The notes: a model not told the origin generated them from the sequence alone. DNA of 64,000 nt from Clostridia bacterium (GCA_017621415.1 JAGATD010000049.1:1127-65126); one strand, 5' to 3'; positions 50,787 to 61,269 are shown, counted from the first letter of the stretch. A program made the numbers and translations.

Positions 50787-51971
50787 TTAATGGTGGAACA
50801 GGCGCATGCCCGTAAATGCCATAACCATGCCGTACTTATCGCAGCACTCAATAACCGCATCGTCACGGATAGAGCCGCCGGGCTCTGCTATATACTTAAC
50901 GCCCGATTTCTTTGCTCTCTCGATATTATCAGAGAATGGGAAGAATGCATCCGATCCCAGGGCTACGCCGTCAATTGTATCAAGGTATGCTCTCTGCTCT
51001 TCCTTAGTGAAGGGGGCGGGCTGCTCGGTGAAGTACTTCTGCCAATTACCGTCTGCGCAAACATCCTCTTCGTTCTGGTTTATGTAACCGTCTATAACAT
51101 TGTCTCTGTCAGGGCGCTTGATATCCGCCTTGAAGGGAAGAGAGAGCACCTTGTCGGACTGACGGAGGAACCAGGTATCAGCCTTACCGCCTGCGAGTCT
51201 TGTACAGTGAACTCTCGACTGCTGACCTGCTCCAACACCTATAGCCTGTCCGTCTATTGCGAAGCAAACAGAGTTGGACTGTGTATACTTAAGAGTAATA
51301 AGAGCTACCACAAGATCGCGAACCGCACTCTCGGGCATATCCTTATTCTCTGTAACAATCTCCTTAAGAAGAGCGGGATTTATTTCAAAATTATTTCTTC
51401 CCTGCTCAAATGTAATACCGTACACCTGCTTTCTTTCAACCTCAGCGGGAACAAAGTCAGGATCTATCTTTACGATATTGTAGCCGCCCTTTCTCTTTCC
51501 CTTAAGGATTTCAAGAGCCTCAGGCTCGTATCCGGGAGCTATGATTCCGTCAGAGACCTCTCTTGCTATCATCTTTGCGGTAGTAACGTCACAAACGTCG
51601 CTGAGCGCTACCCAGTCACCAAAGGAGCACATTCTGTCTGTACCTCTCGCTCTTGCATAAGCGCAAGCAAGAAGAGAGCCATCAAGTCCCTCTATATCAT
51701 CAACAAAGCAAGCCTTCTTTAACTTGTCGGAGAGAGGAATACCAACTGCAGCGGATGTGGGAGACACGTGCTTAAAGGAGGTAACCGCAGGAAGTCCGAG
51801 AGCCGCTTTAAGCTCCTTTACAAGCTGCCAGGAATTGAATGCGTCAAGGAAGTTAATGTAGCCGGGTCTGCCGTTAAGAATCTCAATAGGAAGCTCTGAG
51901 CCGTCGTGCATAAAGATTTTAGCAGGCTTTTGGTTAGGGTTACAGCCGTATTTAAGTTCAAATTCTTTCAT
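50787..51971 (-). CDS. purH: AICAR formyltransferase (PurH transformylase domain only)
   Basis: LKYGCNPNQ at the N-terminus (no IMPCH domain), SFKHVSP, KYTQSNSV, GAGQQSR, SDAFFPF, EPGGS, RLFHH. Confidence 0.9.
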   Translation of the reverse strand: MKEFELKYGCNPNQKPAKIFMHDGSELPIEILNGRPGYINFLDAFNSWQLVKELKAALGLPAVTSFKHVSPTSAAVGIPLSDKLKKACFVDDIEGLDGSLLACAYARARGTDRMCSFGDWVALSDVCDVTTAKMIAREVSDGIIAPGYEPEALEILKGKRKGGYNIVKIDPDFVPAEVERKQVYGITFEQGRNNFEINPALLKEIVTENKDMPESAVRDLVVALITLKYTQSNSVCFAIDGQAIGVGAGQQSRVHCTRLAGGKADTWFLRQSDKVLSLPFKADIKRPDRDNVIDGYINQNEEDVCADGNWQKYFTEQPAPFTKEEQRAYLDTIDGVALGSDAFFPFSDNIERAKKSGVKYIAEPGGSIRDDAVIECCDKYGMVMAFTGMRLFHH

Positions 51972-51996
51972 TTTAATCTCCTTATGTTTATACTCA

Positions 51997-52021
51997 CGGC
52001 GGGAGCAAGCCCCCGCACTAC
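51997..52021 (-). repeat. GTAG-type REP element
   Basis: GTAG-TGCGGGGGCTTGCTCCCGCCG on the minus strand. Confidence 0.6.
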
Positions 52022-52023
52022 GA

Positions 52024-52740
52024 TTATACGTTTTTGTTTACTACTCTTGTATCGGTCTCGCCTGATGCGATGTTGATATATCTTACAAAGAGAGAGACCT
52101 TGTTGTCCTCGTTAAGATTTGTCCAGATAAGGTCTGTAAGAGTATCAATATCCACATCCGGAAGAATAAGAGTTTTAGGCTCGCCTTCGAATGAAGGAAG
52201 GGGATTTCCGTCACCGTTATATGTGTGGATAAACTTAGCAACACCTGCTTTGGGGTTAGAGTATGCGTATGTAAATCTCTCACAGGAGGAATCGTCACCC
52301 TCAGCGCTCTTCAAAATAGACATAGCAAAGTTCATATCGCAGCACTCACGGCGGATAATACCCGAAATTCTGGGGGTAAAGTTAGGCTTATCGTCCTCAA
52401 ACTCACGTGTTCTGAGAGCCTGCTCAAAGGTCATCTGCTTGTCCATAAGCTCATAAATCGTATCGGTCTGGTCGCCGTTTGTAACAATTGTTTTGTTGCC
52501 GAGAACTCTTACGGGATAGTAGATGATAAGGTGCGGGTCAACCATTTTTGACTCATCAAACGCCTTGGTACGCATAGCATCACCCTCAAGAACAAAAACA
52601 CGGTTACGGCTGTTCTCGCTTCTGCCCATAATAAAGTAAGCGGTAACTGCCTTTTTCCCGTCGGCAGACTTGCCTATTATAATTCCTCTGCCGTGGTAGG
52701 CAAGAGAGTTAAGCTCTTCCTTAATTGTGGATATTTTCAT
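52024..52740 (-). CDS. IMP cyclohydrolase (PurO-like)
   Basis: YHGRGIIIG, AYFIMGRSENSRNR, IIYYPV, VTNGDQTD, FTPRISG. Confidence 0.85.
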   Translation of the reverse strand: MKISTIKEELNSLAYHGRGIIIGKSADGKKAVTAYFIMGRSENSRNRVFVLEGDAMRTKAFDESKMVDPHLIIYYPVRVLGNKTIVTNGDQTDTIYELMDKQMTFEQALRTREFEDDKPNFTPRISGIIRRECCDMNFAMSILKSAEGDDSSCERFTYAYSNPKAGVAKFIHTYNGDGNPLPSFEGEPKTLILPDVDIDTLTDLIWTNLNEDNKVSLFVRYINIASGETDTRVVNKNV

Positions 52741-52743
52741 TTT

Positions 52744-53376
52744 TTATTCTCCAATATATACTTTATTGTTTTTAACGGTTATTTTTCCGTCGCAGAACAG
52801 CTGCACTGCTCTTGGAAGTATTTTCCACTCTGCCTCTTCCATAATTCTTCGCTGAAGTGTTTCGGGAGTGTCATCTTCCCTTACCTCAACAGCCTTTTGA
52901 AGAACTATTGGACCTGCGTCACACTCGGGAGTAACTATATGAACTGTTGCACCCGAAACCTTAACGCCCTTTTCAAGCGCTGCCTCGTGAACGTGGAGTC
53001 CGTAATAGCCCTTGCCGCAGAATGAGGGAATAAGAGCCGGATGAACATTAAGAATTCTGTTTGGGAATGCTTCATATACCTGCTCGTCAATTATGGTAAG
53101 GAAGCCTGCAAGTACAACAAGGTCTATACCGGCTGCTACCATTTCATCGGCAAGCGCTCTTGAATAATCGGCAATGCTTTCGTAATCACGGCGGGCAAGC
53201 ACCTTTGCTTTGATCCCTGCCCGAGCCGCCCTCTCAAGAGCGAAAACACCGGGCTTCGACGCAATTACCAGAGTGATTTCGCCTGCTCCAAGCTCGCCCC
53301 TGCCCTGAGCGTCAATAAGCGCCTGCAGGTTTGTTCCGCCGCCCGAAACAAGAACGGCAATCTTTTTCTTTAACAT
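52744..53376 (-). CDS. purN: Phosphoribosylglycinamide formyltransferase
   Basis: [31 protein letters not shown]. Confidence 0.96.
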
Positions 53377-54413
53377 AAGATTACACCCTCGTCAGTTTCA
53401 ACAACCTCACCGAGAAGATATGCCTCATCGCCGTTAGCGCGAAGAGTTTCGATAGCCACGTCGGCATCAGCCTTATCAACAACAACTATCATACCGACAC
53501 CCATATTAAAGGTGTTGTACATATCTCTTTCGGGAATGTTTCCGGTCTTTGCGATAAGATCAAAGATAGGAAGAACCTTAACGTCTGCCTTATTTATCTT
53601 AGCGCCAAGTCCGTCGGGGAAGCTACGGGGAATATTCTCATAGAAGCCGCCGCCTGTAATATGGGAAATACCCTTAACACCGACCTTTTCAAGGAGAGCG
53701 AGAATGCTCTTTACATATATTCTTGTGGGAGTGAGGAGTGCTTCACCAACACTCTTTCCGCCCAAAGACTCGCAAGGAGTGTAAAGCTCGGGGGGATTAT
53801 TATCAATATTAAACACCTTACGGCAAAGAGAGAAGCCGTTTGAATGAATACCAGTTGAGGGGAGAGCGATAATAACGTCGCCCGCCTTCATCTTTGTGTT
53901 ATCAATGATCTTCTTTTTATCAACTATACCAACAGCAAAGCCGGCAAGGTCATAATCATGGGCAGGCATAAGCCCCGGATGCTCGGCGGTTTCGCCTCCG
54001 ATAAGAGCGGCTCCGGACTGCACACAGCCCTCGGCAACGCCCGAAACAATAGACGCAATCTTTTCGGGATAGTTCTTTCCGCAAGCTATATAATCAAGGA
54101 AGAAAAGAGGCTTTGCGCCGCAGCAGATAATGTCGTTTACACACATTGCGACAGCGTCAATACCGATTGTATCATGCTTGTCCATAAGCTGAGCAAGCTT
54201 AACCTTTGTTCCGCAGCCGTCAGTACCCGAAACAAGAACAGGCTCCTCCATACCTGTGGGGAGACCAAAGCAACCGCCAAAGCCTCCGACATCGTCGAGG
54301 CAGCCCTCGTTACGAGTACGGGCAATATGCGCCTTCATAAGCTCAACGGCCTTGTATCCCGCGGTAATATCAACGCCTGCGGCAGCGTAGCTTTCAGATC
54401 TTGAATTTTTCAC
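53370..54413 (-). CDS. purM: AIR synthase
   Basis: [43 protein letters not shown]; GTG start at 54413 inferred. Confidence 0.95.
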
Positions 54414-54429
54414 TTTAAACGTCTCACTT

Positions 54430-55839
54430 TCACTTTTTATTTTCGGAAATTTTGTTTTCGTATTTATTTTCGTATTTCTTGGGGATCTCTGTTGGGTACT
54501 TACCGTCAAAGCATGCTGTGCAGTAGCCTGCGGATGTGCCGGTTTTACAAATTTCGGTAACGTCTTCAAGTCTCAGATATCCGAGAGAGTCGGCACCGGT
54601 AATCTTTGTTATCTCCTCAACCGTATGGTTGCAGGCGATAAGAGAATCCTTAGAATCAATATCTGTACCGTAATAGCAGGGGTTGATAAATGCGGGTGCA
54701 GAGGACCTGAGATGTACCTCCTTTGCCCCTGCGCTCTTTAAAAGCTTTACAAGCTTTGCGCAGGTTGTACCTCTTACTATTGAGTCGTCAACAAGAACAA
54801 CTCGCTTACCCCCAACGGTATCTCTGACCGGGTTAAGCTTTATTTTCACCTTATCCTCGCGTACATCTTGACCGGGAGCGATAAAGGTTCTGCCAATATA
54901 TTTATTTTTTATAAGTCCTATACCGTAGGGTATACCTGACTCCTGCGCATAGCCTATTGCGGCATCAAGACCGGAATCGGGGACACCAACAACAATATCC
55001 GCTTCAACCGGATGAGCCTTAGCAAGCAGCTTTCCTGCCTTGCGGCGAGCCTTGTGAACCGCGCAGCCTGCAATAGAGGAATCGGGTCTCGCTGTGTAAA
55101 TATACTCAAAAATGCAAAGGCTTTCGTTACATTCACCGCATCTGTCTGTCAAGGACCTTACCGAACCGCCCTGGAATACAACTATCTCACCCGGGGCAAG
55201 CTCACGAATAAACGTAGCTCCTACAGAATCAAGAGCGCAGGTCTCGTCAGCGACAACATACTGACCGTCATCCCTCTGACCGTAGCACATTGGGTGAATA
55301 CCGTATCTGTCTCTTGCGGCAATCATCTTCTGCGGAGACATGAGCAGCATGCAAAGACCGCCGGAAAACCTAGTCATAGCTTTAGAAACAGCCTCCTCAA
55401 TAGAGGCGGATGTAAGTCTCTCTTTTGTAATAACGCAGGATACAATCTCCGCATCAATCGTTGTATGGAAAATATGTCCCTCAAGCTCAAGCTCTCTTTT
55501 CAGCTCGGCAGCATTGGAAAGCTTGCCCGAGGTGGCGATAGCCATTCTTCCCTTAACATGGTTTACAACCACAGGCTCGGCATTTACCCTATCCTTGGTT
55601 CCCAGGGTACCGTACCTTACGTGACCGATAGCCATATTTCCAAGCCCGAGATTTTGCAATGCCTTATGGTCAAAGACATCATCGACAAGACCCGAATCCT
55701 TATGTGTTGAGAAAATTCCGTCATCATTAACAACAATTCCCGCGCTTTCCTGACCTCTGTGCTGGAGCGCAAAAAGACCGTAATACACACTTGATGCTAC
55801 ATTGCATCTCTCTTTACCTATAATACCGAATACAGCCAT
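54430..55839 (-). CDS. purF: Amidophosphoribosyltransferase with degenerate glutaminase domain
   Basis: [48 protein letters not shown]; catalytic Cys1 absent. Confidence 0.93.
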
Positions 55840-55865
55840 AAAAATTTCTCCTTTAAAAACGCGGC

Positions 55866-56360
55866 TTAAACATTGTACTTTTCTTCAACAGCCCTGTTCT
55901 TCTCAAGTACAACAAGCGCCGCCTCCGAACGCTTTGCTTCAAGCTTTGCGGCGAGTGTATCATCAGAGAGTGCGAGTATCTCAGCAGCCAGGTGAGCCGC
56001 ATTTGCAGCACCGTCTATCGCTACGGTTGCAACAGGAATGCCCGAGGGCATCTGAACCGTAGACCAAAGAGCATCTACACCGCCGGTGTTCTTACAGGAA
56101 ATGGGAATACCGATAACCGGGAGTGTTGTGTTTGCCGCAACAGCGCCTGCAAGGTGCGCTGCCATGCCCGCGGCAGCTATCATAACTCCAAAGCCACAAG
56201 CCTTCGCTCCCTTAACGAACTCAGCCGCTTCAAGGGGAGTTCGGTGTGCCGAATATACGTGAACCTCGAAGGGAATGCCGTAATCCCTAAGAACCGCAAT
56301 ACCCTTTTCTACTATGGGAAGATCGCTGTCGCTTCCCATTAGAATTGCTACTTTTTTCAT
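55866..56360 (-). CDS. purE: N5-CAIR mutase
   Basis: MGSDSD, SAHRTP, AGMAAHL, PVIGIP, VQMPSGIPVATV. Confidence 0.96.
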   Translation of the reverse strand: MKKVAILMGSDSDLPIVEKGIAVLRDYGIPFEVHVYSAHRTPLEAAEFVKGAKACGFGVMIAAAGMAAHLAGAVAANTTLPVIGIPISCKNTGGVDALWSTVQMPSGIPVATVAIDGAANAAHLAAEILALSDDTLAAKLEAKRSEAALVVLEKNRAVEEKYNV

Positions 56361-56383: not shown

Positions 56384-56428
56384 AAAAAAATAAAAGGGCA
56401 GAACTACCCCATAAAGGTAGTGCTGCCC
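56384..56428 (-). terminator. Riboswitch expression-platform terminator
   Basis: GGGCAGCACTACC..GGTAGTTCTGCCC followed by T-rich tail; overlaps the aptamer 3' end. Confidence 0.85.
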
Positions 56429-56497
56429 AGACGGTCGACTTAATACGATTTTTGCTTCCTTGCAGTCAATTCTGCTTACCGTCGGTTACAAAAACCC
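56423..56497 (-). ncRNA. ZMP/ZTP (pfl) riboswitch
   Basis: P1 TTTTTGT/GCAAAAA, AACCGACGG, P2 GCAG..CTGC, 3' GTCGACCGTCTGGGCA; GACGG/CCGTC pseudoknot; upstream of the pur operon. Confidence 0.88.
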
Positions 56498-56509
56498 TTA
56501 CCATTGTAT

Positions 56510-56539
56510 ATTCTACCATATTATAAATATAAAAGTCAA
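56510..56539 (-). promoter_or_regulatory. sigmaA promoter of the pur operon
   Basis: TTGACT-18-TAGAAT with extended TG. Confidence 0.65.
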
Positions 56540-59238: not shown

Positions 59239-61269
59239 ATGGAACGCAAAATAATTAAAGGTATATCCACTCTTAACCCTGTTGATGTTGAGAGAGAGTA
59301 TTATCTTTACACCGTTGATTATGCGATAAAGCACGGCTTTGACCACTACCAGCTTATCGGTCCCATTCACGACGGAACAAAGGGCAATATTGACGGAATG
59401 ACCTTTTCTAAAAAATACGCTCAGTTCAACGATGAGAAAGATGCCGACTACGTAAACTACTGCCTCGAGGTAGTTAATGAGGGTCTTGAGAAGCTGGCTG
59501 CCGCAGGAATCAAAACCTATATGTGGCATCACGAATTAGAGCTGCCCTATGCATTTAATGCGGCATTTCCCGAGGCTCTTAACGACTACGGTGACATTGA
59601 GGTAACTCACCCTGTTGTTAAAGACTACCTTGAAAATAAAATCCGCGATTTCTTTGAGGCATATCCAAAAATGGACGGCATTATTCTTACCCTCCACGAA
59701 ACAAAGGTGCCTCTCCTCAAGTTGAAAAATCAAAAGCTCACGCCAACAGAGCGTGTAAAGTACGTAACAGAGATTCTCTACAATACCTGCGCAGAGCTTG
59801 GAAAGGAGCTTATAGTACGTCCCTTTGCCAGTATCGAAGAGGATTACGAAATGATGACTAAGGCATATGAGGAAATCTCTACCGACCTTATTATCATGGA
59901 TAAATGGACACAGTTTGACTGGTCGCTTTGCCTGCCTGACAATCGCTTCTTTGCAAAAATCAAAAACAATCCTCTTTTTGTTGAGGGCGATATCTTTGGC
60001 GAATTCTTTGGCAAGGGCAGACTTCCTCTTATGCTCCGCTCACACATAGTTAACAAGTTTACTTATAGCGAAAAATTCTCCCCTATCGGATATGTCGCGC
60101 GTATTGACAGAGCGGGGCTTGACCCGTTTGGTGAGGTTAATGAAGTAAACCTTGTTATTATGCACGCAGTGCTCTCGGGTGATAATGTTGACGAAAGAAT
60201 AAACGAGTTCTTTAACAAAAAGTACGGCAAAGCCGGCGCCGGTGTTCGCGAAATAATGGAGCACACAGAGGATATCCTAAAGAAGGTAATATACCTTAAG
60301 GGCTATTATTACAGTCAGCTCTCCCTCTTCCCCTGCCTCAACCACTGCAAAAATCACTTCTATTTCGAAATGATGCGTGATGATTGGCGAATAGCTTCAA
60401 ACGAGTGGTTTATTCCTATCGGTTGGGACAGAGGCTCGCTTGACAGTGTTATGGAGGAAAAGGCTTCCGCAGTACGTGAGGCAGCCGAGGCTCTTACAAA
60501 GCTTGAGGCGCTCAAGGACGAAATTGAGCCTTCTGCTTACGAAAACCTTTATACCAAGTTCAAGAATCTTGAGCTCGTCGCAAAAATATGGAAGACCCTT
60601 ACCGATGTATTCTACGACTACGCAAAATATTTTGAGTACGGTGACGAAAAGTACAAGGTGGCATTCTACAATGACACAAACAAGCTTTCCGCCCTTAACG
60701 AGGAGGGTAAAAAGGCACTTGGCGACAGCTTCTACTGCATAAGCGGAGACAGCCTGGTGGGAGCCGGAAGATATGAGCTTATTGCCATGTTCCTTGAAGA
60801 AATAAAGGAGAGCTTCTGGCTTGAAGCAAAGGCAAAAGCCGAGCTTGACTCAGAGGAGCTCTATGATTATATTATCGCCGGAGGCGCATCCGAGGGTCAC
60901 GCTCTAATGAAAGAGGTAAACTTCAGCGATACTCTTGTATTTGACGGAGCTCTTTGCCGAATACCCGGTCATATGCGCAGAAAGGGCAATACTATAAAGA
61001 GCACTATTAACGCCCATGGCTGGTTCACCTATGAGATAAAGATAAGACCCTGTGAAGAAAACGAGATAGTAATAACCGCAGGCGGATATGATGACACGGT
61101 TGATATGCGTGTTACTGTGGGAGATAAGGTTTACAACTTTAGCGGCAACGGTAATTTTAACGAGTATGTTATAAGATATGCCGCAGCTGCTGACGAAACC
61201 AAGGTTCGGGTACGTATTGACCGCATTTCTCCCAATGCCCCCTTGGTACGCTCTATAAAGATTAAATAA
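59239..61269 (+). CDS. Hypothetical 676-aa cytoplasmic protein, possibly glycoside hydrolase-like
   Basis: Long ORF with RBS and own promoter; barrel-like N-terminal pattern and beta-rich C-terminus; no family recognised with certainty. Confidence 0.6.
   Translation: MERKIIKGISTLNPVDVEREYYLYTVDYAIKHGFDHYQLIGPIHDGTKGNIDGMTFSKKYAQFNDEKDADYVNYCLEVVNEGLEKLAAAGIKTYMWHHELELPYAFNAAFPEALNDYGDIEVTHPVVKDYLENKIRDFFEAYPKMDGIILTLHETKVPLLKLKNQKLTPTERVKYVTEILYNTCAELGKELIVRPFASIEEDYEMMTKAYEEISTDLIIMDKWTQFDWSLCLPDNRFFAKIKNNPLFVEGDIFGEFFGKGRLPLMLRSHIVNKFTYSEKFSPIGYVARIDRAGLDPFGEVNEVNLVIMHAVLSGDNVDERINEFFNKKYGKAGAGVREIMEHTEDILKKVIYLKGYYYSQLSLFPCLNHCKNHFYFEMMRDDWRIASNEWFIPIGWDRGSLDSVMEEKASAVREAAEALTKLEALKDEIEPSAYENLYTKFKNLELVAKIWKTLTDVFYDYAKYFEYGDEKYKVAFYNDTNKLSALNEEGKKALGDSFYCISGDSLVGAGRYELIAMFLEEIKESFWLEAKAKAELDSEELYDYIIAGGASEGHALMKEVNFSDTLVFDGALCRIPGHMRRKGNTIKSTINAHGWFTYEIKIRPCEENEIVITAGGYDDTVDMRVTVGDKVYNFSGNGNFNEYVIRYAAAADETKVRVRIDRISPNAPLVRSIKIK

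Follow-up and report, generated by a model that had tools for sequence, protein, structure and literature searches.

With which nitrogen donor does a PurF begin purine synthesis when its glutaminase domain has lost the catalytic residues? The question is raised by a purF gene on the minus strand (54430..55839) of a 64,000-nucleotide stretch of Clostridia bacterium DNA (GCA_017621415.1, JAGATD010000049.1:1127-65126), the whole of which is called the window here. PurF is the textbook purF-type glutamine amidotransferase, and EC 2.4.2.14 names glutamine as the donor for the formation of phosphoribosylamine (PRA) from phosphoribosyl pyrophosphate (PRPP). An earlier sequence-only reading of the window had proposed a natural, ammonia-dependent enzyme. 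In our analysis, the protein is probably a working PurF with a dead glutaminase, which would make PRA from free ammonia. The gene, its start and its two domains, namely the N-terminal nucleophile (Ntn)-type domain and the phosphoribosyltransferase (PRTase) domain, are located as follows:

54430..55839, minus strand: purF, glutaminase-dead [4Fe-4S]-type amidophosphoribosyltransferase, 469 amino acids (aa)
55135-55839, minus strand: Ntn-type domain of PurF, approximately residues 1-235
approximately residues 236-469, minus strand: type I PRTase domain of PurF
55848-55853, minus strand: Shine-Dalgarno (SD) sequence AAGGAG, 8 nucleotides (nt) ahead of the purF ATG
55837-55839, minus strand: start Met of purF, aligned with the nucleophile Cys1

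The ATG-initiated open reading frame (ORF) of 469 aa is PurF. The NCBIfam equivalog model TIGR01134 matched it with 472.2 bits (cut-off 350), spanning positions 2-432 of its 432, and the Pfam models GATase_7 (57.2 bits), GATase_6 (48.7 bits) and Pribosyltran (PF00156, 34.8 bits) were also recognized. The alignment to Bacillus subtilis PurF (1ao0_A, E 2e-124) was continuous from query residue 2 to 453 (chain residues 2-450), and it placed M1 on Cys1 and A2 on Gly2; the alignment to Escherichia coli PurF was concordant. Both comparisons had been called for by the sequence-only reading, and both bear out its claim that the protein has neither a propeptide nor Cys1. The nearest canonical relatives, by comparison, begin M..EE-CGVFG. 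The strong ribosome-binding site that it had described ahead of MAVFG is also present at the 8-nt spacing given above. The purE stop codon (55866-55868) lies 27 nt upstream of the purF ATG, and reading of the upstream region revealed no in-frame ATG, GTG or TTG between the upstream stop and this ATG and no Cys-Gly start ahead of it. Since residue 2 is Ala in the window PurF, and Gly, Ala or Ser across the clade of Cys-less relatives, the start Met is probably removed after translation.

The extent of the loss was assessed by comparing 130 sequences of this Cys-less clade with 127 canonical PurFs (E. coli numbering, except where window residues are named). Cys1 is replaced by Met in 130/130 clade sequences and is Cys in 127/127 canonical ones. 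The oxyanion-hole motif AHNGNL reads ATSGKL in the window (residues 102-107; H100 to T, N101 to S), exactly as had been reported from the sequence. Across the clade, H100 is T in 123/130 sequences, while the position of N101 (window Ser104) holds S in 68, A in 49, C in 8, N in 2, D in 2 and E in 1, so that the oxyanion Asn, present in 127/127 canonical PurFs, is kept in two clade members only. The Gly of the oxyanion hole (G102) is kept in 130/130, and at the Ser position of the ASES motif D, T, S, N or G occurs. Compared with its six nearest canonical relatives, the clade has only 12 diagnostic sites, and three of them fall at otherwise near-invariant positions: C1M; Q86E, with E in 130/130 clade sequences and, among the canonical ones, Q in 124/127 and E in 0/127; and F259T, with T in 130/130 against F in 119/127. 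The last of these adjoins Tyr258, which touches the pyrophosphate of PRPP in E. coli PurF, as described in PMC7056826. The positions of the changed and retained elements in the window are:

55525..55533, minus strand: Thr103-Ser104-Gly105, replacing His-Asn-Gly of the oxyanion-hole motif
55576..55578, minus strand: Glu88, equivalent to E. coli Gln86, clade-fixed substitution
55093..55095, minus strand: Thr249, equivalent to E. coli Phe259, adjoining the PRPP-contacting Tyr258, clade-fixed substitution
54763..54792, minus strand: PRPP-binding loop of ten residues (350-359), intact
55114-55116, minus strand: Fe-S ligand Cys242
54676-54678, minus strand: Fe-S ligand Cys388
54520-54522, minus strand: Fe-S ligand Cys440
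54511-54513, minus strand: Fe-S ligand Cys443

The rest of the active architecture is preserved. The glutamine-holding residues R26, R73 and T76 are kept in 130/130 clade sequences and D127 in 128/130; G27, Y74 and P87 are also kept in 130/130, and T333, F334, I335, K349 and Y258 in 129-130/130. Each of D, D, S, R and T in the PRPP loop (DDS..R.T) is retained in 129-130/130 sequences, and the four cluster cysteines (C242, C388, C440 and C443) are each Cys in 130/130, at B. subtilis-aligned positions; the loop and the Fe-S ligands are thus as intact as the sequence-only reading stated. Y74 and I335, the two residues that make up a wall of the ammonia channel, are both unchanged in the window PurF. 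With respect to class II amidotransferases (Ntn, purF-type; MEROPS C44), the Cys nucleophile and the Asn-Gly oxyanion hole are missing and the glutamine-binding residues are present. The nucleophile and the oxyanion hole are given as the defining features of purF-type amidotransferases in PMC9140057; sequence and context mark the window protein as an orthologue of PurF, but it lacks both of these catalytic features. The earlier description of a PurF without a glutaminase site therefore holds for the catalytic residues but is overstated for the site as a whole, as the glutamine-binding R26, R73, Y74, T76 and D127 are all kept.

The absence of Cys1 is an inherited trait. All 120 closest protein clusters (formed at 90% identity, 75-92% identical to the window PurF) begin M[GAS][VLIF]FG, and in all of them the oxyanion Asn is either absent or present within an altered motif. 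Among 41 genomes of relatives, the window-type PurF was found in 10 of the same genus, this one included; at each of these 10 loci, an ATG stands exactly where the canonical relatives have the TGC (Cys1) codon and is preceded, at 6-9 nt, by an SD sequence, to which the propeptide-coding region of those relatives corresponds. A quick maximum-likelihood tree built from 58 sequences united 28/28 Cys-less loci in one clade (Shimodaira-Hasegawa-like approximate likelihood ratio test, SH-aLRT, 99) inside the Cys1-bearing PurFs of the same genus, and this nesting points to a single loss of Cys1. Additionally, three sequencing runs, from three other studies, yielded contigs that cover the purF start; all of these contigs share the same start, with no Cys start restored in any of them, and the sole difference near it is a synonymous change at 55828. 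The argument that two separate motif losses speak against a sequencing error is accordingly extended to a trait common to 120/120 clusters, 28/28 loci and the contigs of three studies. An apparent "EEEC-M" reading upstream of one locus (L009) was rejected, as it is the translated SD region.

No second, canonical purF, for which a search had been suggested, was found in the genome. The assembly (1.97 Mb, 60 contigs, 97.4% complete) contains one TIGR01134 match, the window purF, whose product also carries the only GATase_7 (PF13537) domain of the genome, and no other PurF-like match was found in the 10 window-type genomes. The survey of Cys1-less orthologues showed the whole clade, which shares the loss, to be under purifying selection. 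The ratio of nonsynonymous to synonymous divergence (dN/dS) in the closest non-identical pair (L002/L036) was 0.073 for the N domain (dS 0.74) and 0.026 for the C domain (dS 0.95), and the medians over the usable pairs were 0.10 and 0.085, respectively. Sites conserved in at least 90% of the canonical PurFs are kept in the clade at 28/34 positions of the N domain and 40/41 of the C domain.

The loss of the catalytic residues, its inheritance, the single copy, the operon and riboswitch context detailed below and the purifying selection are established by these data, and all of the computational checks that the sequence-only reading had proposed favored it. That the enzyme is fed with ammonia is argued from its PRTase half, which is intact and strongly constrained, from the intact channel wall and from the presence of only one copy. 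In an ancestor within the genus, the propeptide and the Cys1 codon would have been replaced by a ribosome-binding site and a start ATG, so that the chain would begin at residue 2 after removal of Met and carry no nucleophile. The oxyanion Asn and His100 were likewise lost, and no change is seen in the PRPP site, in the flexible loop, in the Fe-S cluster or in the Y74/I335 channel wall. PRPP and free NH3/NH4+ from an ammonia-rich gut would then most likely yield PRA, with ammonia probably entering via the emptied glutamine pocket and the retained channel. We infer catalytic activity, ammonia as its substrate, the route of entry and the removal of Met from the sequences compared. Related public records are metagenome-assembled genomes (MAGs) of uncultured Eubacteriales, Oscillospiraceae or Clostridia from sheep colon and rectum and roe deer cecum, the sequencing runs containing the purF DNA are labelled animal gut or feces, and no Amt ammonium transporter (PF00909) was found in the 97.4%-complete assembly; the animal-gut origin and the missing Amt fit an ammonia-rich niche but are not proof of it.

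The genetic context also supports the use of ammonia by a functional PurF. The placement of the gene in the main pur operon, proposed from the sequence, was borne out: on the minus strand, the order is purE-purF-purM-purN-purO-like-purH-purD-purL, led by a ZTP riboswitch. The components of this region, with those products that form or act on inosine monophosphate (IMP), aminoimidazole carboxamide ribonucleotide (AICAR) and formylglycinamidine ribonucleotide (FGAM), are:

56510..56539, minus strand: promoter-like site, TTGACT, 18 nt, TAGAAT, with TG; consensus match only
56418..56499, minus strand: ZMP/ZTP riboswitch aptamer RF01750, 54.5 bits (gathering score 39), match to the full model 1-86
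56395..56410, minus strand: terminator-like hairpin with T run, located between aptamer and purE and probably the expression platform; consensus match only
55866..56360, minus strand: purE, TIGR01162, 184.9 bits, cut-off 149.6
53370..54413, minus strand: purM, TIGR00878, 433.5 bits; GTG start probably near 54413, the ORF opening upstream at TTG
52744..53376, minus strand: purN, TIGR00639, 200.2 bits
52024..52740, minus strand: PurO-like IMP cyclohydrolase, PF07826, 225.7 bits; under NCBIfam cut-offs
50787..51971, minus strand: purH, AICAR formyltransferase part only, NF005492, 680.4 bits
49238..50509, minus strand: purD, TIGR00877, 521.5 bits
45543..49235, minus strand: purL, 1230 aa, single-chain FGAM synthase, TIGR01857, 1879 bits
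58259..58957, plus strand (opposite): purC-like gene, PF01259, 131.3 bits; TIGR00081, 107 bits, below the cut-off of 189.9

Two genes of this operon share the PurH function, with the formyltransferase-only PurH adjoining the PurO-like IMP cyclohydrolase (50787-52740, minus strand). The 447-aa ORF upstream of purE is GH39-like, and the 676-aa ORF directly after purC (59239-61269, plus strand) has no Pfam or NCBIfam match; neither shows an evident link to purines.

Among characterized enzymes, the [4Fe-4S] PurF of B. subtilis (1AO0, 1GPH) resembles the window PurF in its two-domain layout, four cluster cysteines, PRPP loop and pur-operon position. However, the B. subtilis enzyme is made with an 11-residue propeptide, whose removal exposes Cys1, and it has an Asn-Gly oxyanion hole, whereas the window PurF has no propeptide, Met for Cys1, Thr-Ser for His-Asn, Q86E and F259T. 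The model for its predicted activity is provided by laboratory mutants of E. coli PurF, in which replacement of Cys1 by Ala or Ser abolished the use of glutamine and left NH3-dependent synthesis (Mei and Zalkin 1989, as cited in PMC3261824). Each of these mutants carries one engineered change, in an enzyme that has no Fe-S cluster, unlike the window PurF, which is the sole copy and in which the loss is natural, old and accompanied by more fixed changes. The only natural Cys1-less case met in the literature is archaeal: Mlab_0150 of Methanocorpusculum labreanum, a PurF homologue with Ser for Cys1, is a recent paralogue located next to a canonical purF, and the authors of PMC3261824 did not regard it as the real PurF. 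The window genome, in contrast, has no canonical purF alongside. No description of a natural Cys-less bacterial PurF was found in the open full-text literature, PMC10912719 and PMC7668255 included, and the database label for the window-type PurFs, as well as for the other Cys-less forms described next, is plain amidophosphoribosyltransferase.

A wider survey covered 150 PurF cluster representatives at 50% identity. Cys1 was present in 129 of them and lacking in 12, which belong to about 10 separate lineages in a FastTree tree with midpoint rooting only; four N-terminally short, Asn101-bearing sequences (P0175, P0198, P0209 and P0243) were set aside as probable fragments, and the start of P0152 may be mis-called. 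Position 86 or 101 is acidic in 5/11 Cys-less lineages against 1/129 Cys-bearing representatives. A PurF 51% identical to that of the window (G126:C23:32877-34247, a 469-aa frame aligned from query residue 1) may be a further Cys-less lineage.

One large Cys-less group is a PurF-like family of gut Clostridia in which 120/120 sequences begin MGGFFG, all without Cys1, and all 120 retain DDSxVRGT and the C-terminal CxxC. Like the window PurF, this family occupies the purF slot of the pur operon (between purE/purC and purM in 4/6 loci examined), and it is the only PurF-like match in 12/41 relatives. It differs from the window PurF in its low identity (30-35%; 174-203 bits, below the TIGR01134 cut-off), a deleted R73-Y74 loop, Val at position 101 and a C-terminal insertion, and it forms a separate deep branch; these comparisons indicate that the window-type loss of Cys is later than, and independent of, that of the MGGFFG family. 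In an order-wide draw of 201 genomes at least 90% complete, counted by hand and with the type assigned by E-value alone, 57 had a weak match only (1e-33 to 1e-58), 129 a strong one and 15 none, so that 57/201 genomes of the order probably carry the MGGFFG type as their only PurF-like match. A further group comprises Anaerococcus and related Peptoniphilaceae, cultured strains included, whose PurF starts MSG[VI]VG with Ser1 and has AHDGNL (Asp101) in 4/5 loci examined; it was the only PurF in 3/3 Anaerococcus-group genomes searched. A cluster representative with a similar start (MSGVVG), P0127, also bears Q86E. The Anaerococcus PurF is like that of the window in being the sole PurF, without a Cys nucleophile and with the oxyanion Asn replaced. 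It differs in that Ser substitutes for Cys1 instead of the residue being lost, in forming an independent clade and in being available in cultured strains.

Several points weigh against a PurF fed with ammonia. The use of NH3 is argued by analogy with laboratory mutants of a different PurF, one that lacks the Fe-S cluster. R26, R73, T76 and D127 stay invariant or nearly so, although an ammonia-fed enzyme does not obviously need them, and the glutamine-holding residues are lost in more degenerate Cys-less lineages but kept here. It may be that they are needed for loop closure and channel formation. The pocket may also still bind a ligand, either ammonium, which the new Glu could help to capture, or glutamine as a signal. 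The selection data have limits as well, as dS is near saturation for most pairs and only 36/378 were usable. Moreover, the ratio of N- to C-domain divergence is 1.4-1.9 in the clade against approximately 1.1 in canonical PurFs, a comparison limited by the greater divergence of the canonical pairs. The N domain is thus somewhat relaxed but not decaying.

Two further objections come from the rest of the genome. The glutaminase domain of PurL retains GICNGFQ and GHSER in the alignment to Thermotoga maritima PurQ (3d54_D), in agreement with the earlier statement that PurL keeps its Cys/His/Glu triad, and a glutamine synthetase is present, as is a second match, in a frame of 702 aa; thus the cell has glutamine at its disposal and consumes it one step later, at PurL. 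The change concerns the Ntn-type enzyme specifically. Searches of the 97.4%-complete genome found neither GlmS nor GATase_2, and asparagine synthase B was not detected there (PF13537 matched PurF only); PurF thus carries the only Ntn-type amidotransferase domain of the genome, in which no working Ntn-type amidotransferase was found. A NagB-like gene (L067:1435-3350; below NCBIfam cut-offs), located beside nagA, could make glucosamine-6-phosphate from ammonia. The second objection is that the annotated purine pathway is one enzyme short, with canonical PurB absent from the genome (TIGR00928 matched only FumC and ArgH, and ADSL_C matched nothing). PurB scored above the cut-off in 15/41 relatives and in 3/25 genomes of this genus; it was present in 0/10 genomes with the window-type PurF, 0/12 with the MGGFFG type only and 11/14 with a canonical PurF. 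Because the three PurB-less genomes with canonical PurF belong to the same genus, its absence looks like a trait of the lineage and not a partner of the Cys loss.

It is conceivable, as a tentative extension of the use of ammonia, that the pocket was rebuilt and not merely disabled, giving a purpose-built ammonia:PRPP aminotransferase derived from canonical PurF in about a dozen fixed steps. Q86E, H100T, the small or acidic residue at position 101 and the chain shortened by one residue would then together form an ammonium-capture site at the channel mouth (Y74 and I335), F259T would retune the PRPP end, and R73, T76 and D127 might still sense glutamine.

A sensing role could also be the main one. 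The pocket would bind glutamine (or another amino acid) uncleaved, as a sensor of nitrogen status that closes the glutamine loop and switches on the PRTase, with ammonia as the substrate. We consider this unlikely, although it would account for the retention of R26, G27, R73, Y74, T76, P87 and G102 in 130/130 sequences and of D127 in 128/130, despite divergence within the clade to approximately 67% identity. It also accords with E. coli PurF, in which, as reported in PMC7953260, R73 is salt-bridged to a glutamine analogue and closure of the glutamine loop holds the PRTase loop shut. However, Y74 and its loop may serve only the I335 channel wall and the shielding of the PRPP site, and R73, Y74 and T76 are lost in other Cys-less lineages.

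Alternatively, the protein might be a non-catalytic relic or regulator, with PRA made by other routes (spontaneously from ribose-5-phosphate or PRPP and ammonia, or in side reactions) or with purines obtained by salvage. The missing canonical PurB would suit this explanation, and alternative PRA routes are known in enterobacteria (PMC7668255). Nevertheless, the strongest constraint lies on the PRTase domain (omega 0.026), the PRPP-site, loop and Fe-S residues are all kept in 129-130/130 sequences, and the eight other pur genes are intact, under a ZTP riboswitch, which together make a relic quite improbable. It is also highly doubtful that nitrogen still comes from glutamine by way of a docking glutaminase protein or a new internal nucleophile. 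The kept glutamine-binding residues and the Cys (8/130) or Ser (68/130) at window position 104 could be taken in its favor, but no additional glutaminase gene was found in the purE-purL operon, and position 104 is variable (S, A, C, N, D or E). Moreover, Ntn chemistry requires the free amino group of the nucleophile itself, as stated in PMC9140057, and the C1S mutant of E. coli PurF is devoid of glutamine activity (cited in PMC3261824). An artefact of assembly or annotation, with the true start lying upstream and encoding Cys, has a precedent in the mis-called starts hiding Cys1 that PMC3261824 reports for archaeal purF genes, but it was rejected as having practically no chance of being correct, given the upstream in-frame stop, the lack of a start codon before the ATG, the correctly spaced SD sequence, the same structure in 28 loci and 120 protein clusters, and the agreement of three independent contigs.

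If PurF indeed works with ammonia in these organisms, the window clade would be the most useful case for experiments, as its loss is recent and the genus also contains canonical sisters. Because only 12 diagnostic sites separate it from them, the step from glutamine to ammonia would be retraceable residue by residue. A sizeable share of gut Clostridia would then begin purine synthesis with free ammonia and not with glutamine, predictions of sensitivity to glutamine analogues would be affected, and metabolic models of nitrogen flow in rumen and hindgut communities would change.

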